A model generated the notes under the pieces. It saw only the letters and a list, made by a program, of their open reading frames with translations, was not told where the DNA came from and did no database searches. Position numbers and translations under genes: made by a program. Below are positions 30,271 to 59,384 of a stretch of 64,000 nucleotides of DNA, in pieces (position 1 is the first letter of the stretch; every line of letters starts with the position of its first letter). This DNA comes from an uncultured archaeon (GTDB taxonomy: Archaea; Asgardarchaeota; Lokiarchaeia; Sigyniarchaeales; SOKP01), in the NCBI GenBank assembly GCA_964486045.1, contig CAZALK010000007.1, positions 96,001-160,000 on the forward strand, given 5' to 3'.

Positions 30271-30291
30271 TGATTTAGAGAGTGATTCATC

Positions 30292-30711
30292 ATAGTTATT
30301 ATTCTTGATTCTAATTTTCTATTCGCAATTACTTTTAAAAGAGATAAAAATTTTCTAAGAGCTTATGAACTATTTATGGAATTAAAAGAAAGTAAAGTCC
30401 AGCCCTTACTTACAAATAATTTAGTTTTAGAAGAAACCATAAATCTAGTAGTTGCGAGATTTAATGGGAATCTTTTTCATTTAGATAAGATTTATAAGTT
30501 ATTTTGGGGAGATGATAATTTTTTTCAGACTGAATATTTAATGCAAGATGAGTATAAAACAGTATTTAATGACCTAAAAAAATACACAACCCCTAAGAGA
30601 TTATTGAGTTTTATTGATGCTTCCTTAATATCTTTATATCAAAAGTATAAGGGAGATAAAATCCTTTCTTTTGACAGTCATTTTGATAATATTCTTGAAA
30701 GATTATATTGA
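30292..30711 (+). CDS. vapC: PIN-domain toxin; probable ATA start at 30292
   Basis: The upstream in-frame extension supplies the catalytic ILDSN motif; also VLEET, LSFIDAS and SFDSHF. Confidence 0.88.
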   Translation: MVIILDSNFLFAITFKRDKNFLRAYELFMELKESKVQPLLTNNLVLEETINLVVARFNGNLFHLDKIYKLFWGDDNFFQTEYLMQDEYKTVFNDLKKYTTPKRLLSFIDASLISLYQKYKGDKILSFDSHFDNILERLY

Positions 30712-30873
30712 TATATTTTATTAATAGGTTACCTAACCGTAGTTGTTATATTTGATATCACATTTCCAAATCTTCCAGCATTCAAAACAACTTCCATAAT
30801 TAAACCCAAATATACATTAGATGCAAAATCTACAACGTTTCTTCAAGCTGAGAAAGAACAAATAATTAAAAAA

Positions 30874-31122
30874 ATGAATCTCGATTTATATTTTGATATG
30901 GTAAAACTGAAAATCGACATAGGAATTAAATTTATGAAACAAAAAAAATTCGATGAATCGATACAATTATTTCAAATTGCTTTAACTCTTGTTAAAGAGA
31001 AATACAACACTTTACCAGAAACAATAACTACCAGATTTTACGAGGTTATCAAAATTAGAGAAATAAAAAGTTTAATTAGTCAATCTGAAATCAGGAAATT
31101 AAATATACTAAATAGATTGTGA
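30874..31122 (+). CDS. Hypothetical protein with TPR-like helix, probably 5'-truncated
   Basis: The frame stays open back to 30712, immediately after the vapC stop. Confidence 0.45.
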   Translation: MNLDLYFDMVKLKIDIGIKFMKQKKFDESIQLFQIALTLVKEKYNTLPETITTRFYEVIKIREIKSLISQSEIRKLNILNRL

Positions 31123-31357
31123 AATAATAATTCATCATAACCTAGGGCGTGAGAGGAGGAGGAGGAGAATTTAAAAACTTTGAGATCATAGATCGAAGTT
31201 TTGTTTTTAGAAATGAATTTTAAAAAATAATTAAGGAAATAAATGACATTAAATTATATGACTATTTCTCAATTGGTAAAAAACGTTTGAAGTTTTTATC
31301 TCTAGAAAAAGTTGAGCCGAAAATTATTTATTTGTAGAAAATTTTTTATTTGAAAGA

Positions 31358-31780
31358 ATGAATTCGAAGAAGAAATTCCTTGAAATAGAATTGATTAATA
31401 TTCAACCTAGTCAATTATATATTAGCAAACAGAAACTTGCTAAAGTCAGGGAAAAATTTAACCCTAAAGATATATCGACATTAGATGTAATACCCATTAA
31501 AAAAATAAATAGCATTATTTTTTATACTGATGGTCATACTAGGGCATTTGCAGCATATCAAGCAGGTTTTACAAAAATCCCGGTAATTTGGGAAGATGAA
31601 GAGTTAGATTGGGAGCTATATCAAATTTGTATTAAGTGGTGCAATAATGAAGGTATATATTCGATTGCTGATTTAAACGATTTCATTATTGATCAGAAAA
31701 ATTACGAACTTCTTTGGTATAGACGGTGCGAAAATCTGCATAAAGAATTAATGAAGAAGAGGGTTAAGAAAAAAAATTGA
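31358..31780 (+). CDS. ParB/Srx-like domain protein
   Basis: IQPSQLYIS and DGHTRA motifs. Confidence 0.75.
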   Translation: MNSKKKFLEIELINIQPSQLYISKQKLAKVREKFNPKDISTLDVIPIKKINSIIFYTDGHTRAFAAYQAGFTKIPVIWEDEELDWELYQICIKWCNNEGIYSIADLNDFIIDQKNYELLWYRRCENLHKELMKKRVKKKN

Positions 31781-31789
31781 TCTTGGATC

Positions 31790-32512
31790 CTATTGTACCG
31801 CTAGACTTGCCCCAGGAATATAAACAACCATGGTTTGGAAATTCGAATTAAAAATTAAGTATTGTTCAACTGTTAGGTATTGAGATTCCCAAAAATTATA
31901 AGCAAAATTATATTTTAAATTCATTTTAACTAGAAAAATATTACTTAATATAATCGTAGAGTTATAATTAACAGTAGAGGGTATTTCTGTAAAATTTGTG
32001 TACCAATCACCAGACCAAAATGAAGGTCTATCTCCCGTGTGAGTCCACTCAGCGGCAAATATCTCTGTGTGGTTGGCATACTCTGCTTTAATAATTGCAT
32101 CATTGTTGTAGTTCAGATATATCAAAGATTCATTGGTAACTTCTAATGAATAAATAAAATTCTGCTGATGATAAGGAAATAAATGGATTTCTCCTTTATC
32201 TTTATCAATTTTCAGCTTTAAGGATTCTATGAATTCTCTGTCAATATGATATTTATAATTATGAAAAGATCCACTTAAGTTTTGAATTTCACCCCAAATG
32301 TCGCGAGATTTACAATACTTTAGATAATCAAACAATTCACTTTTTTCTACTATGCTCTCAAAATTTTGAATGTTTGCTCCATAAGTTATCTTATAGTAGA
32401 TTCTAATAAGAATTAAGGAATTATTAACAAATAACGATAAAGGGGTGATTGTACCTGTTAGAAAGATTATTATGATGGTAATTATAAGTTTTCTTTTGAT
32501 TTTCACTCTCAC
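31790..32512 (-). CDS. Hypothetical membrane-anchored protein
   Basis: N-terminal TM segment; very AT-rich. Confidence 0.65.
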   Translation of the reverse strand: MRVKIKRKLIITIIIIFLTGTITPLSLFVNNSLILIRIYYKITYGANIQNFESIVEKSELFDYLKYCKSRDIWGEIQNLSGSFHNYKYHIDREFIESLKLKIDKDKGEIHLFPYHQQNFIYSLEVTNESLIYLNYNNDAIIKAEYANHTEIFAAEWTHTGDRPSFWSGDWYTNFTEIPSTVNYNSTIILSNIFLVKMNLKYNFAYNFWESQYLTVEQYLIFNSNFQTMVVYIPGASLAVQ

Positions 32513-32573
32513 CTCTTTTTGGATCTAATAAAACTAGAGAGATTTCAGAGTAATTGATCAAATTAATTGGTAA

Positions 32574-32972
32574 TTACACTCTTCTTCCTCGATGTCCACC
32601 CTTTCTGCGACAGTGGTCATGGGATTTAGGCGTTACTTCTTCAATTCTTCCAACTTGTAGACCAGACCGCGCGAGAGCACGGATACAAGCTTGAGCTCCA
32701 GGCCCAGGAGTTTGCGATTTATTCCCTCCTGGCGCTCTTACTTTAATATGGATGCCCCTTATTCCTTTATCTCTGAGGTCATTAGCCACTCTGAACCCGC
32801 ACTGCATTGCAGCATAAGGGGATGATTCATCACGGCTGGCTTTAACCACCATACCAGCGGTACATTTAGCGAAAGTCTCGGCTCCGCTTAAATCAGTAGC
32901 AGTTACAAGGGTGTTGTTATAACTCGAAAAAATATGGACAATTGCCCATTTTCTATCATCTTTTCTACTCAT
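32574..32972 (-). CDS. rps11: 30S ribosomal protein S11 (uS11)
   Basis: [35 protein letters not shown]. Confidence 0.99.
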
Positions 32973-33490
32973 TATGCTTCACTTTTGGTTGTAGTTTCTT
33001 TTGGTTTTGAGAGAGGGCTATTAGGGGTAAAATCAATAAAATCTTCTTCTTTCAGTTTAACGAGATATGAAGGTGCATCAATTTTTTTTCCTAGGACTTG
33101 AATATGGCCATGAGTGATATATTGTCGTGATTGGTGTACTGAGCTTGCTAAACCTTTTTCAAATACAAGTGTTTGTAATCTTCTTTTTAGAACGTCTTCT
33201 ACAGTTAAAAGAAGGATATCTTCGAATTCTGCTTGTGAGCCAATGACGCCTAGCTTGTTTAATTTTCTAATTAATTCTTGTTGAGCCTCGACAGCTCTCT
33301 CTTTCATTAATCTTCTAGATTTTCTGGCAATGTTTCGCCAATTAGCTAACAAAGTTCTAGCTTTCCAGTATTCTCGTTTATTTCTAAGACCGTATTTACC
33401 CAGAAATTCAAGCTCTTCCATGATCCTTTCTTTTTGGAATGGATGTTTCGGTTTCTTAAACTTCTTCTTTAAGCGTCTTGGATCTCCCAT
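32972..33490 (-). CDS. rps4: 30S ribosomal protein S4 (uS4); true start MGDP at 33490
   Basis: [25 protein letters not shown]; GGTGA SD upstream of the ATG at 33490. Confidence 0.98.
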
Positions 33491-33503
33491 ATTTTCACCT
33501 TTC

Positions 33504-33995
33504 CTATGGTGCTGGTTGTCTTTTTTTCCTTCGCATAACTCCAACTACAAGACCATGACGTCCGGTACTTCTTGTTCTTTGACCACGAACTTTTAATTTT
33601 AGATGATGGCGAACTCCTTTATAAGACTTAATTTTTTTCATCCTATCTATGTCTCGTTTGAGGGAAATATCAAGTCTATTTCCTAGAATATGAAGATCTT
33701 CACCAGTACGCAGATCTTTTTTTCTGTTGACCATCCAATTTGGAATACCACTTTTAATTGGATTTAAAACGATTTCTATAATCCTATTTAAATCTTTTTC
33801 TGCTATTGCTCCTACTCTAATATTGGGATTTATTTTTGCCACGCGTACTATTGCTTGAGCAAATCTCTTCCCAACACCTCTAATTTGCGTTAATCCATAT
33901 TCGATTTTTGCATTTCCATCTACTTGTGTGCGGAGCTCACGTAGGAAAACTTTTTCACGAAAATTTTTTGGTCTATGCGGAGATACAGAACTCAT
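33504..33995 (-). CDS. rps13: 30S ribosomal protein S13 (uS13)
   Basis: GLTQIRGVG, P-WM-NR-KD, SYKG-RH, VRGQRTRSTGR. Confidence 0.99.
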   Translation of the reverse strand: MSSVSPHRPKNFREKVFLRELRTQVDGNAKIEYGLTQIRGVGKRFAQAIVRVAKINPNIRVGAIAEKDLNRIIEIVLNPIKSGIPNWMVNRKKDLRTGEDLHILGNRLDISLKRDIDRMKKIKSYKGVRHHLKLKVRGQRTRSTGRHGLVVGVMRRKKRQPAP

Positions 33996-34187
33996 TCGAA
34001 CTCAATCGATAATTAGTTTATTTAAAGTTTTGATTTAATGTTAGTAAATTCAGAGCTTAATAATAAATTTTTGGTTTTCTCATAGAATAAGCAATTTTCG
34101 CTTCTTCTATAAATTTTGAAAAAAAGAAAATTTTTGGGATTTTTAAGAATAGCCATTAAGTTTCAAATTTATTTGATTTTTATGCTT

Positions 34188-35300
34188 TTAGGATGGAAGT
34201 ACGCTAGTAGCATCATTCTCTTTAATAGCCCCAAAAAGTCGGTTGTTAAGTGCCGTACCCAGTTCAACTGCCCTTGGATCACTCATATCCAACTGTGTAT
34301 AACCAAGGGGGGGTAAATAGGCATAAATCATCAATGACTTTAAGTAATCATACCATGCCATATCAAACTCATAGCTCTTAACTCCTTTTTCTTCCAGCCG
34401 TTTTAGATAAAGCTCGAGCATTTCTTTTTCGATTTTTCTTCGTAATTCAATTTTTATACTAGTTCCTAAAAGATATGCTACATCCAAAATGCTTCTACTT
34501 ACTAATGGGGATCCCCAGTCAATAATTATTACAGGATTTTCACTATTCTCAGAATCAAAAAACATATTGTCTGCTCGATAGTCAAAATGTGCAATGCTCA
34601 GATTATCATCGGGGACATCATTCATCAACCAAGAAAACTGTTTGTATATTTTTTCTCCAATCTCTAAGCCACCTTCCGGGATAAATTCAGTAAATCCTTC
34701 TGATTTTATTGCTAAATCCCATGAATCATGAAAAGTATCGATGAAAGCCATTACTGTTTCATCCCTAGGTTTAGCCATCCAATCAAAAGAAAAAAGATCT
34801 GGAGCATCCCACCATCGTGCATGAAAATCAGCAATTGAAATTATTGCTTTTTTGGTTTGTTGGTAGTCTAAACCTTTAACTTGATCAACCATCTTATAAC
34901 ATTCACAATCTTCAAGAATAAGAATGTATCTTTTAGCTTCTGAATCAAAATCTGAATAAATAAGACCGAGAACACGTATGGGGCTTTTTGGTGCTACTTC
35001 GTTGTAAAACCTTATCTCTTTTTCATAAAGATTATATTGAAGTGCAACCACTAAGGCTGTTCTAAAGGTTGTTGGCATTTTTACAACCATTGTTTTTGGT
35101 AGGTCAGGAGATTCTTTATCATAAGTAATAGTTAATCTTGCCATATCACTTACAAATCCTTCCCCTATACCGCATGCTTCTCTTGAAATTGATTCAATAT
35201 TGACATCCTTAAGGTATCCAGAGTTGTGAAGAACATCATTAAGATATTCAGAACTTATTCTTTTAGTTCGTTTGGGTATCATTACATTCTTAGATTCCAT
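34188..35300 (-). CDS. Aminoglycoside/ecdysteroid-kinase-like phosphotransferase
   Basis: E--FY, LILED, HFDYRADN, IIDW. Confidence 0.88.
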   Translation of the reverse strand: MESKNVMIPKRTKRISSEYLNDVLHNSGYLKDVNIESISREACGIGEGFVSDMARLTITYDKESPDLPKTMVVKMPTTFRTALVVALQYNLYEKEIRFYNEVAPKSPIRVLGLIYSDFDSEAKRYILILEDCECYKMVDQVKGLDYQQTKKAIISIADFHARWWDAPDLFSFDWMAKPRDETVMAFIDTFHDSWDLAIKSEGFTEFIPEGGLEIGEKIYKQFSWLMNDVPDDNLSIAHFDYRADNMFFDSENSENPVIIIDWGSPLVSRSILDVAYLLGTSIKIELRRKIEKEMLELYLKRLEEKGVKSYEFDMAWYDYLKSLMIYAYLPPLGYTQLDMSDPRAVELGTALNNRLFGAIKENDATSVLPS

Positions 35301-35499
35301 TTTTGTATCGCCCTTAATATTACATAAAAATAAAAATTATCATTATTGAGTTTTAGTACATTTAAAAACTTTTGTTAAATTTGGTACATAAATAAATGAG
35401 TAATATAATTCACTAAAGGGTTTTTTGAGTGTTTAAGCATGAAAAAGGATAATGAAGAGTATTTTTATATTAATGGCATGCATTATGATTTCATGATTA

Positions 35500-35643
35500 A
35501 GAGCAAGAATGCTTTTTCCACAAGAATTAGATGGGTTACTTCATTATAACGGTCTCATTATTGACCATAAACATGGATCTTTTGAGGAAGAACCCTTTAA
35601 TTCGGAATCAAACTGGCAGATCGTAATTTGTCATAAAAAGTAA
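35500..35643 (+). pseudogene. 3' remnant of a class I SAM-dependent methyltransferase
   Basis: FPQELDGLLHYNGLIIDHKHGSFEEEPFNSESNWQIVICHKK*, with no intact 5' part. Confidence 0.55.
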
Positions 35644-35772
35644 TTTATGATAACCTTACTCGTGAGATTTTTTACTAAAAGATCATTATTATTTAATATT
35701 ACATAACAAGTGGATTCAATGAAGGAATGAAATAATAAATTTCATTTAACTAGCAAAAAGAGGAGTATTAAA

Positions 35773-37062
35773 GTGCTTGATATAGAATTATTTCGGAATA
35801 ATCTTGAGGAAATTATCAAATCAGAAAAAAGGAGATTCAAAGATCCTACAAATGCTGAAAAAACTTTAGAGTATGACAAGAAATGGAGAGAAGTTTTACA
35901 GAGAATACAGGATTTACGTAAGGAAAGAAGTGAAGTCTCTGCTCAAATAGCTGAATTCAAAAAAAGTGGGGAAACAGAAAAAGCTGAAAAAGCCATTAGT
36001 GTATCAAAGGAGACAAAATCAAAAATTGATGATTTAGAAAAACAACAAATAGAATTTCTTAAACAAAGAGAAGAATTTCGCTATTCTGTAGGAAATATAT
36101 TACATGATTCCGTCCCGACAGGGGAGACTGAAGAATCTAATGAAATTTTGAGAACTGTTGGTGAAATAAAAAAATTTGAGTTTGATCCCCTCTCCCATGT
36201 TGATTTGATTTCTCTAATTGATGGGGCTGACACGAAAAAAGCATCGGAAGTGGTGGGATCGAGATTCTTTTACCTTAAAGGAGATATTGTACTAATGAAT
36301 TTAGCACTGTTAAGATTTGCCTTAGAAAAGATAGTGAATAAAAATTTCATTCCAATGTGGACTCCTTTTTTCACTAAACACGAAATTATGAAAGCAGCAG
36401 CAGAATTAGCAGATTTTGAAGACCAACTTTATAAAATCGAGGGGGAAGATCTTTATATGATTGCTACTTCTGAACAAACCTTAGCTGCATATCATTATAA
36501 TGAAATTATTAACCCAGAAACTTTACCACTTAAATATGCAGGAATCTCTTCGTGTTTTAGAAGAGAAGCAGGTTCACACGGAAAAGACACACTAGGAATA
36601 TTTAGAGTTCATCAATTTGAGAAGGTCGAACAGTTTGTTTTCTGTAAACCTGAGGATTCTTGGAAATATCATGAAGAATTGTTATCCAATTCTGAAGAAA
36701 TTTATAAAGAATTAGGAATTCCTTATAGAGTTGTCAATATAGCTTCTGGAGAATTAAATGATAATGCAGCTAAAAAATATGATCTAGAAGCTTGGTTTCC
36801 TGCTTCAGAAACATACCGTGAGCTAGTATCCTGTAGTAACTGTTTAGATTATCAAGCACGGAAATTAAAAATTAGAATGGGTAAGGTTGGTGCAACTCAA
36901 GCTAAAGAAATTCTACATACCCTAAACTCAACAGCAATTGCAACTGAACGTACAATCTGTTGCATTCTAGAAAATTATCAAAATAAAGACCATTCAATCA
37001 CTATACCGTTAGCTCTTCAAAATTATATGAATGGGAAAAAGGTTATAAAACCAGTTAAATAG
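35773..37062 (+). CDS. serS: Seryl-tRNA synthetase
   Basis: N-terminal coiled arm, ATSEQ, FRREAG, RVHQFEKVEQF, ELVSCSNC-DYQAR, HTLNSTA-ATER. Confidence 0.99.
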   Translation: MLDIELFRNNLEEIIKSEKRRFKDPTNAEKTLEYDKKWREVLQRIQDLRKERSEVSAQIAEFKKSGETEKAEKAISVSKETKSKIDDLEKQQIEFLKQREEFRYSVGNILHDSVPTGETEESNEILRTVGEIKKFEFDPLSHVDLISLIDGADTKKASEVVGSRFFYLKGDIVLMNLALLRFALEKIVNKNFIPMWTPFFTKHEIMKAAAELADFEDQLYKIEGEDLYMIATSEQTLAAYHYNEIINPETLPLKYAGISSCFRREAGSHGKDTLGIFRVHQFEKVEQFVFCKPEDSWKYHEELLSNSEEIYKELGIPYRVVNIASGELNDNAAKKYDLEAWFPASETYRELVSCSNCLDYQARKLKIRMGKVGATQAKEILHTLNSTAIATERTICCILENYQNKDHSITIPLALQNYMNGKKVIKPVK

Positions 37063-37068
37063 ATCTAA

Positions 37069-38313
37069 ATGGGGTACAAAATGATTGAAAAAGATTTGGA
37101 GGATTTTGAAGAATTTTATACTGAAAAAATCAATTCTATTTTTTCAAAAGTAAAGAGGGCTTCGAAAAAGATACTTTTAGATATTAGAGGTAATTTAATC
37201 GAAGTTAAGGTATGCTTGGATCATTTTAGTGAGGTCGGAAAAGAAAAAATTGATCAGAAAGCTCAAAAATCACTCAAATTTTTTTCAGAGAGAATTAGAA
37301 GAGAAATAGATGAAGTTGAGGTCCCTGAAGAAGAGATAAGCTATGACAACATATTGGACTTATTAAACTCAATAAAGAAACTTTTTACTAATATTAATGA
37401 AATTGCCAGAAAGTCCCTCCCTAAAATTCAGAAAGATTTTCAACCTCAAATCAAAGAATTGAATTATATCACGAGAAAACTAGGAAAAAAACAAGGAATT
37501 TTAGATGAATTTCTGAGGAAAAAATATACTGAACTTAAAAACGCTGAATATTTATTAAAAAAATTACCAAAAATTTTTACTCTAAAGAACAACATAGAAC
37601 ACTCAAAAACAGATTTAGAGCAGTTCGAAGTAGAGTTAGAAGAGAGAAAAAACACAGAAGAGGATTTAAATAAAAAATTAGTAGAGCTTGAAAAAAATAA
37701 TTTATTCAAGGAACTGGAAATTGGAAAGGACAAATTATTTCAATTACAATTAAAAATTAATGATGAAATTGGTTTTAAAAAAGCATTAAAGAAGTTTAAG
37801 TTTGAATTAGAAAAAAATACGATTCATGTTCCTAACGTAGATTTAAACTATTTAAGGGATTTTCTTAAAAATCCTATAGGAGTGCTTATATCTGAGAGAA
37901 AAGATTTACCAAAACTCACAAGTTTAATGGTTCAATTAAGGCATGCATTGGAAGAAAACAGGTTAAATCTTAAATCTGACACAAAACAAAAAACAATCGA
38001 CCAAATTAATGCAATCTTTGAGGAAAAGCTATTACAGTCAAACATCGAAAAGTATTTACTATTTCGGGGAGAAATTAAAAATATTGAGGGAAAAATTGAA
38101 GTTGCCGGATTAGCTAAACAATTAGAAGATCTGAAAAACAAAATCTCTTCAAATGCAGTTAAGCTCGACCATATTGAAAATGACCATAATCGGAAAAATA
38201 AAGATTACCTACGATATCTAACTGCTTTAAAAAGTGACCGGGAAGAATTTCAAGCCCTTGTAGAGGAAGTTTTAAATGAAAGTGTGAAAATTAATATAGT
38301 ATTTGCTTTTTAA
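37069..38313 (+). CDS. Coiled-coil hypothetical protein
   Basis: 414-aa K/E/L-rich helical ORF, likely co-transcribed with serS. Confidence 0.8.
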   Translation: MGYKMIEKDLEDFEEFYTEKINSIFSKVKRASKKILLDIRGNLIEVKVCLDHFSEVGKEKIDQKAQKSLKFFSERIRREIDEVEVPEEEISYDNILDLLNSIKKLFTNINEIARKSLPKIQKDFQPQIKELNYITRKLGKKQGILDEFLRKKYTELKNAEYLLKKLPKIFTLKNNIEHSKTDLEQFEVELEERKNTEEDLNKKLVELEKNNLFKELEIGKDKLFQLQLKINDEIGFKKALKKFKFELEKNTIHVPNVDLNYLRDFLKNPIGVLISERKDLPKLTSLMVQLRHALEENRLNLKSDTKQKTIDQINAIFEEKLLQSNIEKYLLFRGEIKNIEGKIEVAGLAKQLEDLKNKISSNAVKLDHIENDHNRKNKDYLRYLTALKSDREEFQALVEEVLNESVKINIVFAF

Positions 38314-38315
38314 TA

Positions 38316-39047
38316 TCACTTTCTTTCTAACATCTCAAAGCTGCGATTGTTATTTGCATTATTCTTCTTAAGAGAGAGTTTTAAATTATTTTTTAAGAAT
38401 TTAAAAACATTTGTATCTCTTAAATTAAAAATCTTTAAATATTCATACGCTAAAACTAGATCTTGCTTAACATCCATATCAAATCCAGCTCTAAATGAAT
38501 CATATATAACTTTTTTACTTATCCCATTCTTTGAAGCATTATTAAGTAATGCAACTAAGGAAGGAGTGTTCGGATCTGAAAAAAAAGATGGAATTATATC
38601 CGGAGGATTCCTACTTAATATTGAAATCCCTGCGGAATGAATATCAGGACAAACAACTAACTGGTTTTTTTTAATAAGGGCATCAATTTCATTAAAGTTT
38701 TTTGCTGTTATCAATATCAAATCTAAAAAAACGAGTGTTGTTTGTTTAGCACTGTATCTTTCAATAACAATTTTATTGAATTCGCTGATGACATCATCAA
38801 AAAGCTTTGGTTTACCTGAAATATCTTCTTTGATACCAATCAAACCATTTTCTTCTGCAAGATCTAGTATTTCTGTAGTATTACAATACACAATTTTATA
38901 TTCATAACAATTTACTCCATTCAAAGTGTTTATTAGATCTTTAAACATTGCAATTGTGAAATCTTTAAGTTGATCAGCTGAAAAACAATCCTGTAAACGA
39001 GATTTTGTTGCTGAAAAGGGGGCTATAGGAATTAATAAAGAACTCAT
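38316..39047 (-). CDS. cofC: 2-phospho-L-lactate/PEP guanylyltransferase (F420 biosynthesis)
   Basis: IP---F---KSRL, AMF-D, DL-LI, FD-D---DL pattern; divergent. Confidence 0.75.
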   Translation of the reverse strand: MSSLLIPIAPFSATKSRLQDCFSADQLKDFTIAMFKDLINTLNGVNCYEYKIVYCNTTEILDLAEENGLIGIKEDISGKPKLFDDVISEFNKIVIERYSAKQTTLVFLDLILITAKNFNEIDALIKKNQLVVCPDIHSAGISILSRNPPDIIPSFFSDPNTPSLVALLNNASKNGISKKVIYDSFRAGFDMDVKQDLVLAYEYLKIFNLRDTNVFKFLKNNLKLSLKKNNANNNRSFEMLERK

Positions 39048-39133
39048 AATCTTCGAAAGTTCAATCTCTTATAAATATTAGATCAAGTTGTTAAAGTCAA
39101 AAAGAAATTTTTATATTTAAGATTATGTAGTGT

Positions 39134-39697: not shown

Positions 39698-39846
39698 ACA
39701 TTTTTACCCCTTGTTTTTTAAATTTAACAGTTTGCAATTATTTCCTAATTTTTGACTTATAATCTGTTACCTTGTTGGTTAAAATATATATTTTTTTGAA
39801 TAATTTACTTTTTCATATTTTTTTTTAATAAATTAATTACTAAATG

Positions 39847-41502: not shown

Positions 41503-41532
41503 ATAACTTTAGATTTCAAATATTAATGATAA

Positions 41533-41925: not shown

Positions 41926-43204
41926 ATGAAAGAGTTTAAAATTAATAAGTATTTATCATTGAGATTAGAAGATGAAAAGACAAATATCTATATCAACCAA
42001 AAGAAAACCGACAATGTAAATATTTATTAATTGATAGAATCAAATACGACGAAATACCAGAATTGGTTGAAAACTTTGAATCTGTGGATGAAGCAACACA
42101 AAACTCAGATCATTCTTTAGATAATAAGAAAGACGTGATACCACCAGAAACAGAATTTTGGGCGCACTGCTCGAATCTTCAAGTATGGGCGGAAAATAAC
42201 TATGATACACGCTTACTTCATATGTCAATAGCGTTTTCATTATTAAAAGAATTAGCAGAAGCGGGGATACGATGGCCAAAAGAGTATTTAAGGAAGAAAT
42301 TGCTAAACGCCTAGGAAGTGGCTATCCTGCCGTCGTTGATTTTTTAATTCTTGAAGGATTCGACATATTTTTGACTCATGAAGAACGAATAACCTCAGTT
42401 CTAGCACCGGAAGAAGCAGATGTCATCTTGAAGTTAGAGGAATTGACGAAAAAACCCTTTTTTCAATATTCTAACCTTGATGAAAGCTATTCAGATGAAG
42501 GTCCCTTTGAACAAAGGTTTGTCGTTAAAAACAATCATGTTATAGGTATTTGGATTCATTGGGCAAAAGAAACTCCTAGAAAACTCCCCGAGTGGATAAC
42601 TAAATTAAAACTGCTTAAAAGGCTTTATTATACAGGAAATAAAATTAAACATATACCGAAGTTAATATTAAAACTGAAAAGACTCGAGGTCTTACAGATC
42701 GATAGTTTTATTCTAGAAGAAATACCAACGACAATTAATAAGCTAAGATTACTCAAATCTCTAAATATACGAAGCGGTAGCTTGAGAATGATACCAGAGA
42801 CCATTGGTGGACTTTCCCACCTTAAATCTCTTTCCTTAGGCAGTAATTTGATTGACTTACCTATCTCAATTGGGAACTTGGAGAAATTAGAAGAATTAGA
42901 TTTATCTCATAACAAACTTAACAATATTCCAAATTTTATATTCAACCTTAAAAATCTTAAGAACTTGAACATCAAAAACAATAATTTAATAGCTCTTTCA
43001 GAGTCCATAAGCAAACTAGAAAAATTGGAAGAGTTAGATTTTAGTAGAAATCCAATAAGGAGTATTTCAGAATCACTTGTTGATATGGTAAAATTAAAAT
43101 TTGTATCTATTGATAAAATTCCCTCAACTGGTTCTAATATATCTATAATAAAAAAAATGAAAAAAAGAAAGAAAATTAGTGTTTTTGGTTATGTTGGTAA
43201 TTGA
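41926..43204 (+). pseudogene. Loki-type LRR protein with two frameshifts (~42008, ~42266)
   Basis: Three frames join: MKEFKINKYLSLRLEDEKTNIYIN / RQCKYLLI...EFWAHCSNLQVWAENNYDTRLLH...EAG / DTMAKRVFKEEI, followed by LRRs. Confidence 0.88.
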
Positions 43205-43229
43205 TTGTCAATACTTCTTGTACCCTTAA

Positions 43230-43688: not shown

Positions 43689-44207
43689 TTAGAAATTTTC
43701 AAAGAATTCTTTATTTAAGTAGTTGTGTATATTCTTTTCAATTTTCTTCTTTACTGCATTTAATCCTTCAGGAAGAACACGAGTTTTTCCTACTATGTCA
43801 ATAAATCCAAGTTCAGATCCGTATCTGGGAATTATATGAAAATGCAAATGGTCAATACTTCCACCTGCATCTCTTCCCTGGTTAATTCCGATATTATATC
43901 CCTTAGGGTTATATAATTCGTCTAATAATAACTGAATTCCTTGAATAGCTCGATTAATGTGAAGTATTTCTTCTTTTGTCAAATCAAGGAACCTTGTTAA
44001 ATGTCGTTTAGTTACGATCATTAGATGCGCAGGATTATACGGATACAAATTCAAAATGATAAAACAAATATCATCTTCGTAAACTTTTAGAATTTCAACG
44101 CGTTCGTCATTATCCCTTACAGCACATAGTATACAATCTACTCTTGGTCTAGATTTGCCTTGAACATAATCTAATTTTCCTAAAGCTTGTAACCAATCTC
44201 TAAAAAT
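43689..44207 (-). CDS. HIT-family hydrolase (Ap4A phosphorylase/Fhit-like); probable ATT start at 44207
   Basis: HLHFHIIPR, NLYPYNPAH, GYNIGINQG. The upstream in-frame segment supplies the conserved C-I-L-C. Confidence 0.92.
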   Translation of the reverse strand: MFRDWLQALGKLDYVQGKSRPRVDCILCAVRDNDERVEILKVYEDDICFIILNLYPYNPAHLMIVTKRHLTRFLDLTKEEILHINRAIQGIQLLLDELYNPKGYNIGINQGRDAGGSIDHLHFHIIPRYGSELGFIDIVGKTRVLPEGLNAVKKKIEKNIHNYLNKEFFENF

Positions 44208-44236
44208 TGGATTTCACCATTATTCCTGTTTTTAAA

Positions 44237-47793: not shown

Positions 47794-47883
47794 TAATTTC
47801 GAAATTCAATTTTATCTAATTATCAAAATTTATTAAATCAAACTCTATCTTATAATTAAAACTAACTGGACAGGTGGTAGAAG

Positions 47884-48027
47884 ATAGCAAAAGTAAAATG
47901 TCAAGAATGTAAGAAGGAAATTGTAGGAGGGGCTAAAATACAGGAGTTTGATATGAATGAGCCCACAAGTATGCATGTCTTCTGTTCTGAGACGTGTAAA
48001 GAGAAGTGGCTCGCCACAATAAGTTAA
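47884..48027 (+). CDS. Small TRASH/YHS-like zinc finger protein (47 aa); probable ATA start
   Basis: Not in the ORF track. (M)AKVKCQECKKEIVGGAKIQEFDMNEPTSMHVFCSETCKEKWLATIS has CxxC...FCSxxC; GGTGG SD 6 nt upstream. Confidence 0.8.
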   Translation: MAKVKCQECKKEIVGGAKIQEFDMNEPTSMHVFCSETCKEKWLATIS

Positions 48028-49326: not shown

Positions 49327-50805
49327 TTATTGATTTTTTAATGAATAACTCTCTTTACGATCAAGAATTTTTTTAACCATATCTTCTCTTTCTGATTCTT
49401 GGAGTCTTTGAATATATCTTTCCAATTGATCCCTCGTATGGTATGGCCCACCTTCAGTTAACACGATTTCCATTGGATCCTTACTAATTGGAAATTTCTC
49501 TTCCATTTCTTTATACCATTTATCAAGAAGTTTTAATCCCTTACGGATTACTTCTGGTTTTTCCTCTGCCACATTTTGCAACATATGAAAATCTTTTTCA
49601 TAATCATAGAGCATTAGTTCTGGGAAATTCTTTAATCCAGTATGATAAGTCTTAATTAATGTCCAATTTTCAAATCTAACAGTGCGTTGACAACTCCATG
49701 CATTCTGACTAATAACCAGGAATTCCCTTCCAAATTCTTCATTATTTTCAATATTCTTAAAGAAGCTTTTGCCATCCCAAAATTCAGGGATGTTCAACCC
49801 TAAACCTTCTAAAACTGTCGCTGCTACATCATTTTGATAGATTAATGAATTTTGTTCCGTTTTCCAATTTTTCTCAGGCCATTTTATTATCATTGGAACA
49901 CGATTAGTTACATGACAGGCAGTAGCGTGATCACCGTAAACATTTAGTTCCCCTTGATTTTCTCCATGATCAGAGCTTATAATTATCAATGTATCCTCGT
50001 AGATACCTTGATCCTTCAGAATTTCTATTATTTTACCAACGTATTCATCCGAATAGTTTATACCAACATCATATCCATCAATCCATTGTTTAAAATCATT
50101 AATATCTCTAATTTCTTTGAGATTTTTCAATCTAGGAAACCACTGAGAAAGATCCTGTCCTACAAATCCAGATAAATCACAAGCAGAATGCGGTCCATAA
50201 CTTTTCCTGTGTTCATCTATGATTTCTTGTGTTAACCAGGAAGGTGCAGGTTCATTCTCAAAGGTATTTAAAAATTCTAAAGGAGTACGGTAAGGGGTGT
50301 GAGGATCCCAGAAATTCACGTGCAAAAACCAGTTATTTCTTTTTTCATTATCTTTTAACCATTTCTCTGCATAAGTAAAAATTTGTTCCGCTCTCTCCAT
50401 CCCTCTTTTTCCAGGGTTATACATTTCTTTCCATCCAGAATTGAACCAAAAAGCAGAATGCCGTTCTGCGAATGGTGATATAGAGACAGGATATATCCTC
50501 GCTCTTCTGAGCATGCTGATCCAGTTAAAACTTAGAAATTGATCTTGAAATCCTCGTGTTTTACCAGTTAACTGTAAATCTGCAGCAGTACCACCATGCC
50601 CAACAACACCAGAGTGTATACCAAATCGACCTGTAAAAAGAGAAGCTCTAGATGGTAAGCATGGGGCATCAGATACATAACATTCTGTAAAAATTGTCCC
50701 ACTTTTTGCTATTTTATCGATATTAGGGGAGGTATTAAGATGATATCCATAACACCCAAGATGATCAGGTCTTAAGGTATCGATATCCAGATAAATAATT
50801 CTCAT
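49327..50805 (-). CDS. Sulfatase
   Basis: DTLRPDH, CLPSRASL-TG (CxPxR), DPH-PY, SDHGE. Confidence 0.95.
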   Translation of the reverse strand: MRIIYLDIDTLRPDHLGCYGYHLNTSPNIDKIAKSGTIFTECYVSDAPCLPSRASLFTGRFGIHSGVVGHGGTAADLQLTGKTRGFQDQFLSFNWISMLRRARIYPVSISPFAERHSAFWFNSGWKEMYNPGKRGMERAEQIFTYAEKWLKDNEKRNNWFLHVNFWDPHTPYRTPLEFLNTFENEPAPSWLTQEIIDEHRKSYGPHSACDLSGFVGQDLSQWFPRLKNLKEIRDINDFKQWIDGYDVGINYSDEYVGKIIEILKDQGIYEDTLIIISSDHGENQGELNVYGDHATACHVTNRVPMIIKWPEKNWKTEQNSLIYQNDVAATVLEGLGLNIPEFWDGKSFFKNIENNEEFGREFLVISQNAWSCQRTVRFENWTLIKTYHTGLKNFPELMLYDYEKDFHMLQNVAEEKPEVIRKGLKLLDKWYKEMEEKFPISKDPMEIVLTEGGPYHTRDQLERYIQRLQESEREDMVKKILDRKESYSLKNQ

Positions 50806-50881
50806 ATTCTTAAGTTAAAACAAATTGTTTTTTAAGTTTTTTAGATTTTTAAATCCAGATCTAGATAATAGTAATTTATGA

Positions 50882-54022
<3,141 letters not shown>

Positions 54023-54101
54023 CCTCTATGTGAGAAGTTATCATTTTAACTTTTATTTATATAATAAAAATAGAAATAATTTCAAATAAACTGGTGTTAG
54101 A

Positions 54102-54917
54102 ATGGCACGACCTTTATGGTTCGTTACATTATTAAAAAAAACGTTCCCAAATGTTAAATTTATAGCAAAACTGACTAATTTACCGATTATAGGGAAAATA
54201 ATTGATCATCTCCTCTTTGAAGGCGACCATCTCATTTATCTTCCTCAAGATAGAGTCATTAACATCGATAAATCATTAGGAGAATACGATGAGGCAGTTT
54301 TACCATCCCAAATATTAAAATATTTTATCAATAAAGCTAAAAATCACTGGATCATGAATTTTTGTATTTGTAGAACAAGTATGAAATGTGAAGATTATCC
54401 TCAGGATTTAGGTTATCTGTTCCTTGGTGAAGCTATACTGGATATAAATCCACAGTTAGGGAGATTAGTGAGTAAAGATGAAGCTCTAGATCACATAAAG
54501 AAGTGTGATGAAGCAGGTTTAGTTCACATGATTGGAAGAAATAAATTGGACGCACAATGGCTTGGTGTAGGTCCAGGAGACAAACTATTAACAATATGTA
54601 ATTGTGATCCATGTTGCTGCTTATGGCGTACAGCCCCATTTTTAACACCAAAGATTGGATCGAAGGTAAAGAAAATACCCGGCGTTAAAATCCATGTGAC
54701 AAATAAATGCACTGGGTGTGGGACCTGCAGAAATGGGATATGTTTTGTTGATGCAATTAAGGAAATAAACGATAAATCTTTTATAAGTGAATCCTGTAAA
54801 GGATGTGGTCGTTGTGTTAGTATTTGCCCTCAAAAAGCAATTGAGTTTATAATTGAAGATAAAAACTATATAGAAACATCTATTAAAGAATTAGACGAAA
54901 TACTAGATGTTTCTTAA
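54102..54917 (+). CDS. 4Fe-4S binding protein
   Basis: CICR, ICNC-CCC, and two C-terminal CxxCxxC motifs. Confidence 0.88.
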   Translation: MARPLWFVTLLKKTFPNVKFIAKLTNLPIIGKIIDHLLFEGDHLIYLPQDRVINIDKSLGEYDEAVLPSQILKYFINKAKNHWIMNFCICRTSMKCEDYPQDLGYLFLGEAILDINPQLGRLVSKDEALDHIKKCDEAGLVHMIGRNKLDAQWLGVGPGDKLLTICNCDPCCCLWRTAPFLTPKIGSKVKKIPGVKIHVTNKCTGCGTCRNGICFVDAIKEINDKSFISESCKGCGRCVSICPQKAIEFIIEDKNYIETSIKELDEILDVS

Positions 54918-54992
54918 TCATAAATATTCTGAGCAATTTTTCCCAAAAAAGAAATAGTTACGGAAACAGCTTCAATAAAATAGTTTTATTCG

Positions 54993-55958
54993 CTAATTTT
55001 TAACAATATCCTTGAAAAAATTAACAAATGCGTTATAGTCATTATTTAAAATTTGTATATCAAATGGTTTATGCTTTTTAAGTCCAAGCATATAGTAGGG
55101 TAAAATAGTTTCTTTTATCGTAATTGGTTTAAATATAAAGTAGTTTCCCGATTTTTTCAATAAAATCTGATCTTCTTGGTTTTCTAACTCCATTTCTTCA
55201 AATACATCGTTAAGCGAGAGAAAATAAGCGATTGTGCTACTCAATTTTTTTTTTGAATCCTCATCCTTAAAAAAGGAACCCAAAATTATCGAGTTTTTCT
55301 CGACGATAATTAAACCCTCACAGTCTAATTTTCTTGCATATTCTTCGATAGTTTGTTGAATTAATTCCGATTTTGGGAATAATTCCAATAACATCTTTGA
55401 CATGGCACTCATTATTGTATATGGAGAGTAAATTGAAGTTCTATAAAATTTTATCATTCGATAATTTGCAGTCTCAATTATCTCTTTTTGTAGTTTTTGT
55501 ATTTCATTTTCTATTTCATTTCTAACGTTTTGAATTAATTTGGGATCATATTTATGAAAGAAAATATAGATGGGTGGGTTTATTTTCAATTCTCTAAATT
55601 TCTCAATCACATCATAAAAATAACTCAATGACTCAAGCACGCGAGAAGTATCTAATATATCAATAACATATATCGCGATTTCAGTATCTTCAAAATATTT
55701 ACTAGGATTTTTTAAATAAGATATACGGTAACTTTTTTGACCTCCTAAATCCCATTCACTTATTTCTTTTCCTAAAAACTTAAAATTAGTTCTTTGAGCA
55801 CCTCTTGTTGGCTCAAGTAAAGCGATCTTTGATAATTCTTTCTGCAAAGCCAATATAATGCTTGTTTTGCCTGCAGCATCTAAACCTGTAAAAAGGATCT
55901 TGTAAGTTTTTTCCTTAGACCTTCCTTCTTTTTGAAAAAACAGTAATGAGTCTTCCAA
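54993..55958 (-). CDS. Arf/Rag-like small GTPase with C-terminal longin/roadblock-like domain
   Basis: GLDAAGKTS, PT, WDLGGQ, HKYD, TSI, plus a ~130-aa C-terminal alpha/beta domain. Confidence 0.9.
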   Translation of the reverse strand: MEDSLLFFQKEGRSKEKTYKILFTGLDAAGKTSIILALQKELSKIALLEPTRGAQRTNFKFLGKEISEWDLGGQKSYRISYLKNPSKYFEDTEIAIYVIDILDTSRVLESLSYFYDVIEKFRELKINPPIYIFFHKYDPKLIQNVRNEIENEIQKLQKEIIETANYRMIKFYRTSIYSPYTIMSAMSKMLLELFPKSELIQQTIEEYARKLDCEGLIIVEKNSIILGSFFKDEDSKKKLSSTIAYFLSLNDVFEEMELENQEDQILLKKSGNYFIFKPITIKETILPYYMLGLKKHKPFDIQILNNDYNAFVNFFKDIVKN

Positions 55959-56170
55959 ATGGATTTCACCTTGGTAAAAATAAATGAATATTTACGCCAA
56001 GAATTGTACAGATATATTGTTATTTAAATCTATGTTAGTAGGAAAAGCTCAGAAATCAAACACTTTTCGATTTATTCCATCGAGTTTTTATTATTTCTAG
56101 TATTAAGTATTGATGAACAGTTTTAACTTTTAGATTTTAAGAGCTCTTACGAATAATTTAAACTATTGTC

Positions 56171-57475
56171 TTATCTTTTTAACTTCTTTATTTTAGATAT
56201 TCCCCTGCTTATTCGATATAATATATCTTCAATTTCTGTGGGTTTTACAATTAATGGGGGCATTAGGATATGAGTGTTTTTTTTGTTTCCACAGTAATTC
56301 AATAAAACTCCTTCTTTTATTATGGAAAGCATCCCTAATCGGCTATTTTCTTCATCAAAAAATTCCATACCCCACATCAAACCTCTTCCCCTAACTTCTT
56401 TAATAATATCAGAATTTTGTTTCGCAATCTTTTCCAACCCATTACCAAACATCTTTCCCATATCCTTAACATGATTTAAAAATTCTGGGTCTGATTGTAT
56501 CTCTAGCATTTCTATTGCTACAGCACATCCAAGATCCGACCCTCCAGTAGTAGAGATATGAATAAAGGCATCTTTATTAAAAACTGCTTTTTCTATAAAT
56601 GGTTTATAACTACACGTTGATAAAGGATAAATTCCAGAGCTCATACCTTTCCCGCATACAATAAAATCAGGTATAACTTTTTCTTCTGGATACAAACCCC
56701 CAATGATTGCCCAAAAATGCCCAGTCCGCCCCAATCCTGCTTGAACTTCATCAATAATCAGCATTACACCATTTTCATCACAAATCTCTCGAACTTCGGG
56801 AAAATAGTCCTTAGGGGCAATTATAACACCTCCAGTAGCAGGAATTGTTTCTAAAATCACACATGCAACTTCTTCATTTACAACTTCCCTCAAAGCATTC
56901 ACATCTCCAAAAAGTACTTGTTTAAATTCAGGCAGGTTCCATAAAAAGGGATCTTTAAAATCAGGATCACCAGTTAATAATGCAAACCCCGTATGACCAT
57001 GATAACCTCCTTTCGCTGATATACAGCCTTTTCTTTTAGTAAATGCTCTTGAAAATTTAATAGCTGTGTCAACTGCCTCACCACCACTAACTCCAAATGT
57101 TGTTTTGCTAATCTCACCAGGCATTAGTTCTGCTAATTTTTTTCCTAATAATGCTCGTTGTTCTGAGAGTAGCATATGATCTCCAAGATCTAATCCGCCA
57201 TTTAATGCATTTTTAAGACTTTGTAAAATTCTCGGATTTCTATGCCCTAAATTAAAGACTCCTCCAGATGATCGGCAGTTATACAACACTATTGGAGGTT
57301 CACCTTCTCTTAATCCTTCCAATGTTCTTAGTTTTATCCCTTCTCTTTTACCAGGAATTACTCCTAGACCAAAACCTTTAAAAGTTCGCACTTTCGCAGC
57401 ATTTACATGTTTTGAATAGAGTTTTAGCAATTTTTTTTGAGATAATGAACCAATATACTTTTTTGATTTCTCCAT
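56171..57475 (-). CDS. Class-III aminotransferase (putrescine/acetylornithine-like)
   Basis: GVFNLGH, SGGEAVD, GYHG, DEVQAGLGRTG, GKG. Confidence 0.92.
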   Translation of the reverse strand: MEKSKKYIGSLSQKKLLKLYSKHVNAAKVRTFKGFGLGVIPGKREGIKLRTLEGLREGEPPIVLYNCRSSGGVFNLGHRNPRILQSLKNALNGGLDLGDHMLLSEQRALLGKKLAELMPGEISKTTFGVSGGEAVDTAIKFSRAFTKRKGCISAKGGYHGHTGFALLTGDPDFKDPFLWNLPEFKQVLFGDVNALREVVNEEVACVILETIPATGGVIIAPKDYFPEVREICDENGVMLIIDEVQAGLGRTGHFWAIIGGLYPEEKVIPDFIVCGKGMSSGIYPLSTCSYKPFIEKAVFNKDAFIHISTTGGSDLGCAVAIEMLEIQSDPEFLNHVKDMGKMFGNGLEKIAKQNSDIIKEVRGRGLMWGMEFFDEENSRLGMLSIIKEGVLLNYCGNKKNTHILMPPLIVKPTEIEDILYRISRGISKIKKLKR

Positions 57476-57806
57476 AATTGTAATTATAAAAGAATAAATT
57501 TATTAAAATTATGAATTAACGTAGAATTCGAGAAAGGTTATTGATTTAATTTTGAAGCTTCTTCAGCAACTAAATTATTTGAAAACATAAAATTTTCAAG
57601 AATAAATGCTCAATCAATTGGTAAGAAAATAATTGCATACAAAATTGTGAAATACCTTTATGAATTTTAATTTTAGAGATGATATTATGAATTCTTTATA
57701 TTATCCACTTAATATCCAGATATTTCAGAAATCTAAAATAAAAAGAATAAAGAAAAAAAATTGCAGACTTGTTTATTAACTCCGCCAAAATAGCGAACTG
57801 GCTAAC

Positions 57807-57900
57807 TTAAAATTCGTATCCACATTTCTTGCAGACCTGTTCTTTTGCATACATCGGAATATGTCCAATATAGCTTAAAACATTACTTTTATCTTCAACG
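57807..57900 (-). pseudogene. Orphan 3' copy of the zinc-ribbon tail of 58254-59177
   Basis: VEDKSNVLSYIGHIPMYAKEQVCKKCGYEF* vs IEDKSKVLSYISHIPMYAKKQVCKKCGYEF*. Confidence 0.85.
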
Positions 57901-58030
57901 AAAGATGAAGCTTTATATAAATATAATTTTTGCGAATAAATCACTTTTCATTTTCGCATGATGCCCCCTATCAATAGCTTAAGCTTATTAGTAGATGTAA
58001 AAATAATTTACTTAGTTGAATAAAAATCAT

Positions 58031-58189
58031 ACCGTTACCACTTGGTGGTTGGACTGATTCATAAACTTGAGCTAACCATCTATACTAATTCTTGCAAGGA
58101 AGAAGCATAGGATTGGGAGATATTATTTCCCAGAGTTTTGATAGAAGAGAAAAATCTTCAGCAAAACTATCTCTGATTTCATTATTTGG
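58031..58189 (-). pseudogene. Internal gene fragment resembling type I restriction subunit HsdR
   Basis: PNNEIRDSFAEDFSLLSKLWEIISPNPMLLPCKN*YRWLAQVYESVQPPSGNG; family recalled from memory, not searched. Confidence 0.45.
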
Positions 58190-58253
58190 GACAAATACAT
58201 AAAATTTTATATAAAATAAAGAGAAATGAAAAAAGAAATATTAAAAAAAAAGT

Positions 58254-59177
58254 TCAGAACTCGTAGCCGCATTTTTTGCAAACTTGCTTCTTTGCATACA
58301 TCGGGATGTGGCTAATATAACTTAAGACTTTACTCTTATCTTCGATTTGCTTGATATCATGGCCAACTGCGCCACACATTGGACAAGTAATTCTTTCTTC
58401 ACTTGCAAAACCGCCTGTACCTATATCAGGAGGTTTCAATTCTTCTAACTCAGTCTCTACTTCGCTGAGGTGAACAGATGCGGATTCAATTTTATGGTCT
58501 CTTTCTGATACAGATTCACTTAGTTCTTGGACTTGTGTATCTCTTTGTAATAAAGTGTTATTTATTTCACTTAGTTGTGAGGTTAATTGGGTAACTTCTT
58601 CTTGAGATGCTGAAATTTTAGAAGTTAAATCTTCAATTTCAGATTTTAAATTACTAATTTCCCCTTGATTTGCAGAACTGGAGCTATTGGCTTCATTTAA
58701 TTGTGCTTCTAAACCTTCGGCATTTTGTTTAGCAGTTTCTAAAGCTGAAGTTAAATTTGCTACATTTTCTTCTGTTGAACTTATTTTAGAATCTTTTAGT
58801 GCAAGGTTGTTTTCAAGGTCACTTATTTTAGTCTTGAATTCTTCTAATTCAGTACTTAGAGAAACATTTTCAGTAGTTAAATTAGTAATAGTTTGATCTT
58901 TTTCTTTGATTGTAGCTTGATCATCTGCAAGGGTTTTTTCAAGTGTATTCTGAGTATCAGCAAGGGTACCTTTTGTTTCATCAAGATTATTTTTTATATC
59001 AATCAGTTCAGTTTCAGTTCTCTTTTGATGTTCTTTTGCTTGTGTTAATTCAGTTTTAGATTCATTTAATTGTTTTTCCAGATCATTTACCTTAGCTCTA
59101 AGATCTAATAAGAGTCTACCTTCTACGGCCACTTTCTTATCTGGCTTTGATTCAGCTTTTTCCCAGTCAATACTAAT
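58254..59177 (-). CDS. Long coiled-coil protein with C-terminal zinc ribbon; probable ATT start at 59177
   Basis: Heptad repeats, CPMCG...CKKCG; the frame extends upstream as (M)SIDWEKAESKPDKK. Confidence 0.88.
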   Translation of the reverse strand: MSIDWEKAESKPDKKVAVEGRLLLDLRAKVNDLEKQLNESKTELTQAKEHQKRTETELIDIKNNLDETKGTLADTQNTLEKTLADDQATIKEKDQTITNLTTENVSLSTELEEFKTKISDLENNLALKDSKISSTEENVANLTSALETAKQNAEGLEAQLNEANSSSSANQGEISNLKSEIEDLTSKISASQEEVTQLTSQLSEINNTLLQRDTQVQELSESVSERDHKIESASVHLSEVETELEELKPPDIGTGGFASEERITCPMCGAVGHDIKQIEDKSKVLSYISHIPMYAKKQVCKKCGYEF

Positions 59178-59384
59178 AACATTTCACCTTTGAGTATTTC
59201 AAATATCGATAATTTTAAAATTAGTTTATTGAATTGATTTGATTATTAATATATATCATATTGAATTAAGCTTTTAATTTTTTTTGACTTTAAAGTTTAA
59301 AAAATATGTATCAAGTATTATGATAATTATTTTTAAGGTTATAATAAATTATAATGAAATAATAAGTGAAACTGGATAAAATAA

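Follow-up and report, generated by a model that had tools for sequence, protein, structure and literature searches.

The DNA analysed here is a 64,000-nucleotide stretch (the window: positions 96,001 to 160,000 of the forward strand of contig CAZALK010000007.1, GenBank assembly GCA_964486045.1) from an uncultured Lokiarchaeon, and the subject is how its genes start. Four intact protein-coding genes of the window, together with about 70-150 genes genome-wide, very probably start at ATT, ATA or ATC (collectively ATH) placed six bases past a Shine-Dalgarno motif (SD), as judged from the sequence evidence below. We consider it highly likely that SD-directed initiation at AUU, AUA and AUC, most plausibly by the initiator methionyl-tRNA (Met-tRNAi), is a lineage-wide trait of Lokiarchaeia. 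A preliminary description of the window had proposed that the lineage routinely initiates at AUU and AUA where an SD positions them, and this proposal now gains support from motif counts, orthologs, coding potential and domain coverage. The four genes and their SD motifs, in window coordinates, are as follows.

30281..30286, forward strand: SD-like AGTGAT of vapC; GTGAT pairs with the 16S 3' end, with 6 nucleotides (nt) to the start and a TGA (30283) in the vapC frame.
30292..30711, forward strand: vapC-like PIN gene, 139 amino acids (aa), putative ATA start (AGTGA-ttcatc-ATA; Pfam PIN match and aligned starts of homologs).
44214..44218, reverse strand: GGTGA SD of the HIT gene, 6 nt to ATT, TGA in frame; spacing kept in same-genus orthologs.
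43689..44207, reverse strand: HIT-family gene (Ap4A phosphorylase / ATP adenylyltransferase-like), 172 aa, putative ATT start at 44207 (GGTGA-aatcca-ATT; Pfam match and orthologs).
47873..47877, forward strand: GGTGG (GGTG core) of the zinc-finger gene, followed by an in-frame TAG at 47878.
47884..48027, forward strand: zf-FCS-like zinc-finger gene, 47 aa, putative ATA start (GGTGG-tagaag-ATA; Pfam match and orthologs).
59184..59189, reverse strand: AGGTGA SD of the coiled-coil gene, 6 nt to ATT, TGA in frame.
58254..59177, reverse strand: coiled-coil protein gene with a C-terminal zinc ribbon, 307 aa, putative ATT start at 59177 (AGGTGA-aatgtt-ATT; orthologs).

The coordinates and motifs first given for these four sites, and for two further sites with TTG starts (27563 and 63163), were all reproduced exactly, and the two TTG starts showed the same geometry with a 6-nt spacer. 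All four ATH sites have an in-frame stop two codons upstream, and no canonical start (ATG, GTG or TTG) lies between this stop and the ATH. The preliminary description had taken these stops as evidence that the genes cannot extend further upstream; the stops are indeed present, but at three of the four sites (vapC, HIT and coiled-coil) the stop is the TGA of GGTGA/AGTGA itself, and since GGTGA plus a 6-nt spacer places this TGA in frame, its occurrence inside the SD is automatic and carries no independent weight. The earlier claim that GGTGA pairs with the 16S rRNA agrees with the tail of the genome's own 16S gene: because this rRNA ends in ...GGATCACCTCCT (also given as ...GGATCACCUCCU and ...GGAUCACCUCCU), GGTGA is a genuine SD core.

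The source genome (5.18 Mb, 31% GC, 45 contigs, of Promethearchaeota (Loki) type) provided 5408 stop-to-stop open reading frames (ORFs) of at least 100 codons, in which each in-frame codon ahead of the first canonical codon was tabulated against its distance to an upstream GGTG. This genome-wide count, which had been suggested as a check, revealed a sharp, position-specific excess of ATT, ATA and ATC 6 nt past GGTG(A) at ORF 5' ends. Counting at GGTG+7, which coincides with GGTGA+6, and ahead of the first canonical codon gave 22 ATT, 23 ATA and 9 ATC next to 25 ATG, 10 TTG and 4 GTG, whereas the control codons composed of A and T only amounted to 8 AAT, 3 TAT, 5 TTA, 9 AAA and 3 TTT, with codon totals that were similar or larger. 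This means that at the 5' ends of long ORFs, 6 nt past GGTGA, 54 ATH codons stand against 25 ATG and 3-9 of each A/T-only control. One hundred of the ORFs (again of at least 100 codons) were bounded by GGTGA, and their codon 3 was ATH in 29 of 67 eligible cases (43%; eligible meaning that codon 3 was neither canonical nor downstream of a canonical codon), whereas all remaining stop contexts gave 11-15% and codons 4-8 within these ORFs 5-15% (Fisher p = 4e-10 and 6e-11 for the comparisons).

With the SD defined by 5 or more nt matching AGGAGGTGATCC, ATH at an aligned spacing of 6 accounted for 79 of 7426 codons versus 204 of 49220 for other codons (odds ratio 2.6, p = 4e-11); about 31 ATH were expected, and ATG, TTG and GTG occurred 82, 26 and 10 times, respectively. 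The SD in front of ATH is complementary to the 3' end of the genome's own 16S rRNA and sits at a fixed short spacing, with a sharp peak at an aligned spacing of 6. Of the first ATGs, ~11% have an SD-like match of 5 nt or more at a spacing of 4-10 (background not subtracted), in agreement with the remark that SD use is not prevalent in the Lokiarchaeon P. syntrophicum (PMC7531240). After background subtraction, ATH made up ~1/6 of SD-led starts and more than half of those behind a GGTG core at the exact spacing. The GGTG-core SD preceded 54% of ATH starts versus 23% of ATG starts (p = 1.5e-8), which implies that the weak codon goes with a strong and well-placed SD. Roughly 70-150 genes of at least 100 codons (~1.5-3%) are probably affected, and ATH accounts for more than half of the starts exactly 6 nt past GGTG(A).

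The coding potential of the sequence that a canonical start would skip was assessed with a codon-usage log-likelihood score in the 92 candidates whose ATH is separated from the first canonical codon by 12 codons or more. This stretch averaged 0.19 bits per codon and was positive in 91% of candidates, which is close to the first 20 codons of bona fide SD-ATG starts (0.24 bits per codon, 94% positive) and well above open frames upstream of SD-ATG starts (0.04 bits per codon, 65% positive). The sequence between the ATH and the first canonical start therefore scores like true N-termini. Outside the genus, 1.2 Mb of G026, a genome in one contig that belongs to a different family of the order, showed only a ~2-fold enrichment of ATH at spacing 5-7 (23/1301 vs 81/8981, p = 0.007; 7 of the 23 are simply followed by an ATG), a result that hints at the same habit there but does not establish it.

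Orthologs of the individual genes (ortholog counts within the genus, for 17, 16 or 15 loci, include the source genome's own gene) showed ATG or TTG at the exact codon, or ATH behind the same SD, for HIT, coiled-coil, vapC, zinc finger and the ribosomal protein gene eL21; ortholog alignment was a check that the preliminary description had proposed. The HIT gene has no canonical start before a TTG at codon 52 (44054), while its Pfam matches cover residues 41-129 (HIT PF01230, 75.9 bits) and 25-126 (DcpS_C), and the HxHxH motif is present as HLHFHI. Across 17 same-genus loci the first codon was ATT in 15 and ATA in one, and in the remaining locus an ATG stood one codon upstream. The wider set of 80 loci from Lokiarchaeal metagenome-assembled genomes (MAGs) comprised 53 ATT, 4 ATA and 2 ATC (59 ATH in total), 11 ATG and 1 CTG; in the other 9 the codon was not near-cognate and a start lay directly upstream (ATG in 5, TTG in 2, ATT in 2). 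GTGA was found upstream in 50 of the 59 ATH-bearing orthologs versus 3 of the 11 bearing ATG. Public protein records of HIT orthologs (P0001-P0099) carry several differing N-termini (MDCILC, MQGK, MDYVQ, MGKLDY, MQALGK, MFxxWLQ and others) and range from 150 to 177 aa, and at least one NCBI record (P0032, on the contig of L152) starts at the ATT. The variation in these records illustrates how unevenly gene callers treat an ATT start. The expectation that standard annotation truncates or misses such genes thus held only in part: since several N-termini are recorded and at least one lies at the ATT, HIT annotation varies from record to record and is not wrong throughout.

The coiled-coil gene has a GTG (59132) just 15 codons downstream of its ATT, so that its sequence alone does not force the ATT, and Pfam was uninformative for the start; here the need for an ATH start comes from the orthologs only. 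These settle the matter, because ATT, TTG and ATG interchange at one and the same codon (10, 6 and 1 of 17 same-genus loci, respectively) and the downstream GTG is absent in most. A paralog at position 42414 of contig C10 (C10:42414) is likewise preceded by GGTGA-N6 at an ATT, and its next canonical start lies 106 codons in.

For vapC, the Pfam PIN match (PF01850, 33.9 bits) spans residues 3-134 counted from the ATA and profile positions 1-117 of 120, and it includes the N-terminal acidic residue of the first strand, with ILDSN at residues 4-8. Starting instead at the first canonical codon (ATG 30376, 28 codons in) would cost the protein its first strand together with ILDSN, which bears out the earlier statement that the ATA is needed to retain this motif. 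At the codon aligned with the ATA, the homologs from relatives carry ATG, GTG or TTG. A 90-aa ORF upstream of vapC had no Pfam match, leaving it unconfirmed as an antitoxin partner. The zinc-finger gene matches zf-FCS over residues 3-41 (22.7 bits, cut-off 22.4), and its first ATG is codon 24, beyond the first CxxC. Among the 15 loci compared, 12 have ATG at the same codon, and ATA occurs in the window copy and in two decayed copies. At loci L134, L135, L136 and L138 the zf-FCS orthologs are decaying, with in-frame stops and lost cysteines, and the gene is intact in most other species.

Outside the window, a Pfam scan of twenty SD-plus-ATH candidates found none that contradicts an ATH start, and several were uninformative. 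One of them is eL21 (C14:118487-118792, forward strand), with a putative ATA start behind AGGTGT: its residues 2-94 align to profile positions 2-97, and a canonical codon does not follow until number 85 of 101. Its first codon in 17 congeners was ATA in 8, ATT in 4 and ATC in 3 (ATH in 15 of 17), with one CTG and one TTG, and GGTG lies 7 nt upstream in 15 of the 17, the two without it being the TTG copy and one of the ATC copies. Among other families of the order, the first codon was ATG in 8, TTG in 3 and ATT in 1. Residues 2-231 of Cas6e match profile positions 2-223, the Ras domain begins at residue 9 with the next canonical codon at 11, and the Pfam domains of NMO, DegT, CheR_N and the XPD and DEAD helicases start ahead of any canonical start. 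Altogether, no canonical codon occurs between the upstream stop and the conserved N-terminus in vapC, HIT, the zinc finger, eL21, Cas6e, Ras, NMO, DegT, CheR, XPD and the initiation factor gene aIF1.

The preliminary description had pointed to aIF1 and the initiator tRNA as components worth inspecting: the tRNA is canonical, and aIF1 itself has a conserved ATT start. The aIF1 (SUI1) gene (C1:612451-612768, reverse strand) has no canonical codon before codon 57, with the SUI1 domain running from codon 28 and a zinc knuckle earlier still. Its ATT, the third codon after a TAA, is retained without exception in the 16 congeners for which the start could be read, all with the identical context AGGTTGTGATAAGAGAGT-ATT; outside the genus, a single genus shows ATA and the remaining ones TTG or ATG. 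The initiator tRNA-Met gene (C1:583602-583726, forward strand) was found by pattern search and confirmed with RF00005 (44.6 bits), and is ordinary in its CAU anticodon, A1:U72 pair and GGG/CCC anticodon stem, with a 51-nt insertion in the anticodon loop. Most tRNA genes of this genome appear to be interrupted, since a genome-wide aragorn run outside intron mode detects just 12 tRNAs.

These observations are best explained by a mechanism in which a GGUGA-type SD would pair with the 16S 3' end (...GGAUCACCUCCU) and position the small ribosomal subunit such that the codon 6 nt (range 5-7) downstream is brought into the P site. The ordinary initiator Met-tRNA (CAU) would then accept a third-position mismatch, and the proteins would start with Met. 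AT-biased mutation from ATG to ATA or ATT may be tolerated where the SD is strong, and the ATT start of aIF1 could provide feedback on start-codon stringency resembling that of infC, the gene for bacterial IF3.

Several points weigh against this account. The background rate alone would be expected to yield about half of the 148 SD-plus-ATH candidates, which makes single unchecked ATH calls uncertain. In vitro, the aIF1 of Sulfolobus solfataricus rejects AUU (PMC4705826), which means that for AUU to be tolerated in the Lokiarchaeal system, either discrimination would have to be weaker or the SD would have to compensate. The SD of vapC is only AGTGA/GTGAT, and an ATC stands one codon ahead of its ATA. 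The zinc-finger gene is tiny, and since several of its orthologs contain stops and both other ATA copies are decayed, its ATA may represent the loss of a start codon in a decaying gene; for this gene taken alone, start loss is a fair alternative.

Four other explanations were weighed against SD-directed initiation by Met-tRNAi. The first, which we regard as improbable, is that ATH is used without Met-tRNAi, either through an elongator or special Ile-tRNA or through termination-reinitiation coupling, giving an N-terminal Ile. Coupling is conceivable for vapC and HIT, which lie 20-30 nt behind a same-strand upstream gene, but the zinc-finger and coiled-coil genes are the first in their transcription units, with divergent neighbours. 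A search of the genome for an initiator-like tRNA with an Ile anticodon found none, and a GGG-CUGAUAA-CCC stem-loop at C17:21292, considered as a special initiator-like tRNA for AUU/AUA, was rejected as it has no Rfam tRNA match. Moreover, orthologs swap ATH, ATG and TTG freely, which is what one initiator tRNA reading them all would predict.

The second explanation, that the ATH genes are pseudogenes or silenced genes whose ATG was lost through AT-biased mutation, draws on the zinc finger with its 12 ATG loci out of 15, its two degraded ATA copies and its orthologs with stops. Such an origin for the ATH genes as a group is very improbable, given that ATH occurs genus-wide in essential or core genes with intact conserved ORFs (eL21, aIF1, TFS and the XPD helicase), that HIT carries ATH in 59 of 80 MAGs, and that the window's own zinc-finger ORF is intact.

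The third is that the true starts are the next downstream ATG, GTG or TTG, and that the SD-plus-ATH arrangement upstream is coincidental. The GTG 15 codons into the coiled-coil gene and the share of SD-plus-ATH candidates expected by chance are what this explanation can claim. The downstream starts would, however, strip the PIN domain of its first strand, HIT of 51 residues, the zinc finger of its first CxxC, eL21 of 84 of its 101 residues and aIF1 of half its length; the stretch left out has coding-type scores, and the ATG or TTG of orthologs falls exactly on the ATH codon, with the GTG absent in most coiled-coil orthologs. We therefore give this explanation only a very slight chance of being correct. 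The fourth, that the out-of-frame ATGs at 44220 and 59182 enter the reading frame through assembly indels or programmed frameshifting, was rejected as extremely improbable: the HIT reading from 44220 (ATG GTG AAA TCC AAT TTT TAG) would join the HIT frame if the T5 run lost one T, but this ATG is present in just 6 of 17 same-genus loci and the coiled-coil spacer ATG (59182) is likewise not conserved, while the HIT ATT and its GGTGA-N6 spacing are retained in dozens of independently assembled MAGs and the genome-wide excess concerns base identity (ATH vs ATG) and not frame.

Starts of the kind favoured here, SD-directed and read at AUU, AUA or AUC, have precedents. NCBI table 11 lists ATT, ATC and ATA as rare initiators, E. 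coli pcnB starts at AUU, and bacterial near-cognate starts are confined to isolated genes, well below 0.1% of starts. To our knowledge, the published archaeal start set consists of AUG, GUG and UUG. The infC gene of E. coli (IF3) has an AUU start and is autoregulated, and eukaryotic eIF1 is autoregulated via an AUG in poor context (PMC4705826). As in infC and pcnB, the weak AUU/AUA start in the Lokiarchaeal genome would be usable through an SD at optimal spacing, and as in infC the fidelity factor's own gene, here aIF1, appears to use AUU, so that autoregulation may be suggested by analogy only. Unlike in bacteria, 1.5-3% of genes and most of the starts that lie behind GGTGA-N6 seem to be involved, and the fidelity factor is aIF1, the homolog of eIF1, rather than IF3. 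The resemblance to eukaryotic eIF1 lies in the weak start site of the homologous gene; eukaryotes rely on scanning and Kozak context, whereas here the weak element would be the codon itself, with placement by the SD.

Compared with Pyrococcus and Sulfolobus initiation models, such as the P. abyssi aEF1A model mRNA with GGAGGUGAUUUAA-AUG (PMC6237735), the anti-SD tail is the same, the SD is of the GGAGGUGA type and the spacing is similar, and the difference lies in the ATH starts as opposed to AUG, GUG and UUG. The closest report concerns the tubulin AtubA of an Asgard archaeon (Kariarchaeaceae), for which a 'rare ATT start codon' was noted during cloning: the protein had been annotated too short, and an upstream ATT at a plausible distance from the ribosome-binding site restores the first beta strand (PMC13394414). 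That report differs in dealing with one gene in another Asgard class, and presents no genome- or lineage-wide habit. Our literature search found no systematic account of such starts beyond this single-gene note, with most subscription journals outside the search, so that absence is no proof. The mechanism is thus of a known kind (infC, pcnB, table 11), and what is new is its frequency, its conservation in the lineage, its use in core genes and its setting in an eIF1-type Asgard system.

The two TTG starts of the window, which served as canonical-codon comparators, are as follows.

27552..27565, forward strand: start of a nitronate-monooxygenase-like gene, GGTGA-attgtt-TTG, with the TTG at 27563.
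63152..63165, forward strand: start of a Gtr1/RagA-like GTPase gene, GGTGT-atatta-TTG, with the TTG at 63163.

A paralog of the nitronate-monooxygenase-like gene at C3:106505 has GGTGA-tttatt-ATA at the equivalent codon. The window copy (27563-28642) contains a single in-frame TAG (28112-28114) where this near-identical C3 paralog has CAG (Gln), and the sequence beyond this stop is conserved throughout; it could reflect a nonsense mutation of very recent date, read-through or an error in the consensus. The Gtr1/RagA-family small GTPase gene (63163-63999, forward strand; Pfam 83 bits) continues beyond the window end and belongs to the eukaryote-signature proteins typical of Asgard archaea. Four other SD-plus-ATH ORFs of 48-52 codons on the reverse strand of the window (at 8529, 13647, 43065 and 54199) were all treated as chance occurrences; those at 43065 and 54199, the only two compared with the ORF list, sit inside longer opposite-strand ORFs. 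An Rfam scan of the window gave zero matches. At the genome level, contamination is estimated at 7.8%, and two short contigs (C40 and C45) have 58-59% GC in a genome of 31% GC and could be rRNA fragments or contamination.

For genome annotation, the finding means that gene finders allowing only ATG, GTG and TTG truncate ATH-start proteins or give them inconsistent N-termini. Almost all Asgard and Lokiarchaeal genomes, in which eukaryote-like proteins are sought, have been annotated with such tools, and wrong N-termini mislead structure prediction, cloning and phylogeny. One published Asgard tubulin had to be corrected in just this way (PMC13394414). A further, tentative idea, which we hold to be possible though doubtful, combines a relaxed lineage-wide start rule behind GGUGA, under which AUU, AUA and AUC (AUH) outnumber AUG, with the conserved AUU of aIF1, such that aIF1 abundance would set the output of the AUH genes by infC-like feedback. 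If this were true, the AUH gene set under aIF1 feedback would comprise eL21, TFS, helicases, and toxin-antitoxin and defence genes, and the feedback would be a third example, independent of bacterial IF3 and eukaryotic eIF1, of a fidelity factor that regulates itself, found in the archaea most closely related to eukaryotes. Apart from this idea, ATH initiation as such would show that the start-codon stringency of the eIF1/aIF1 system is evolvable in the archaeal lineage nearest to eukaryotes, and the ATT start of aIF1 itself offers a concrete, testable case for how fidelity-factor feedback evolved.

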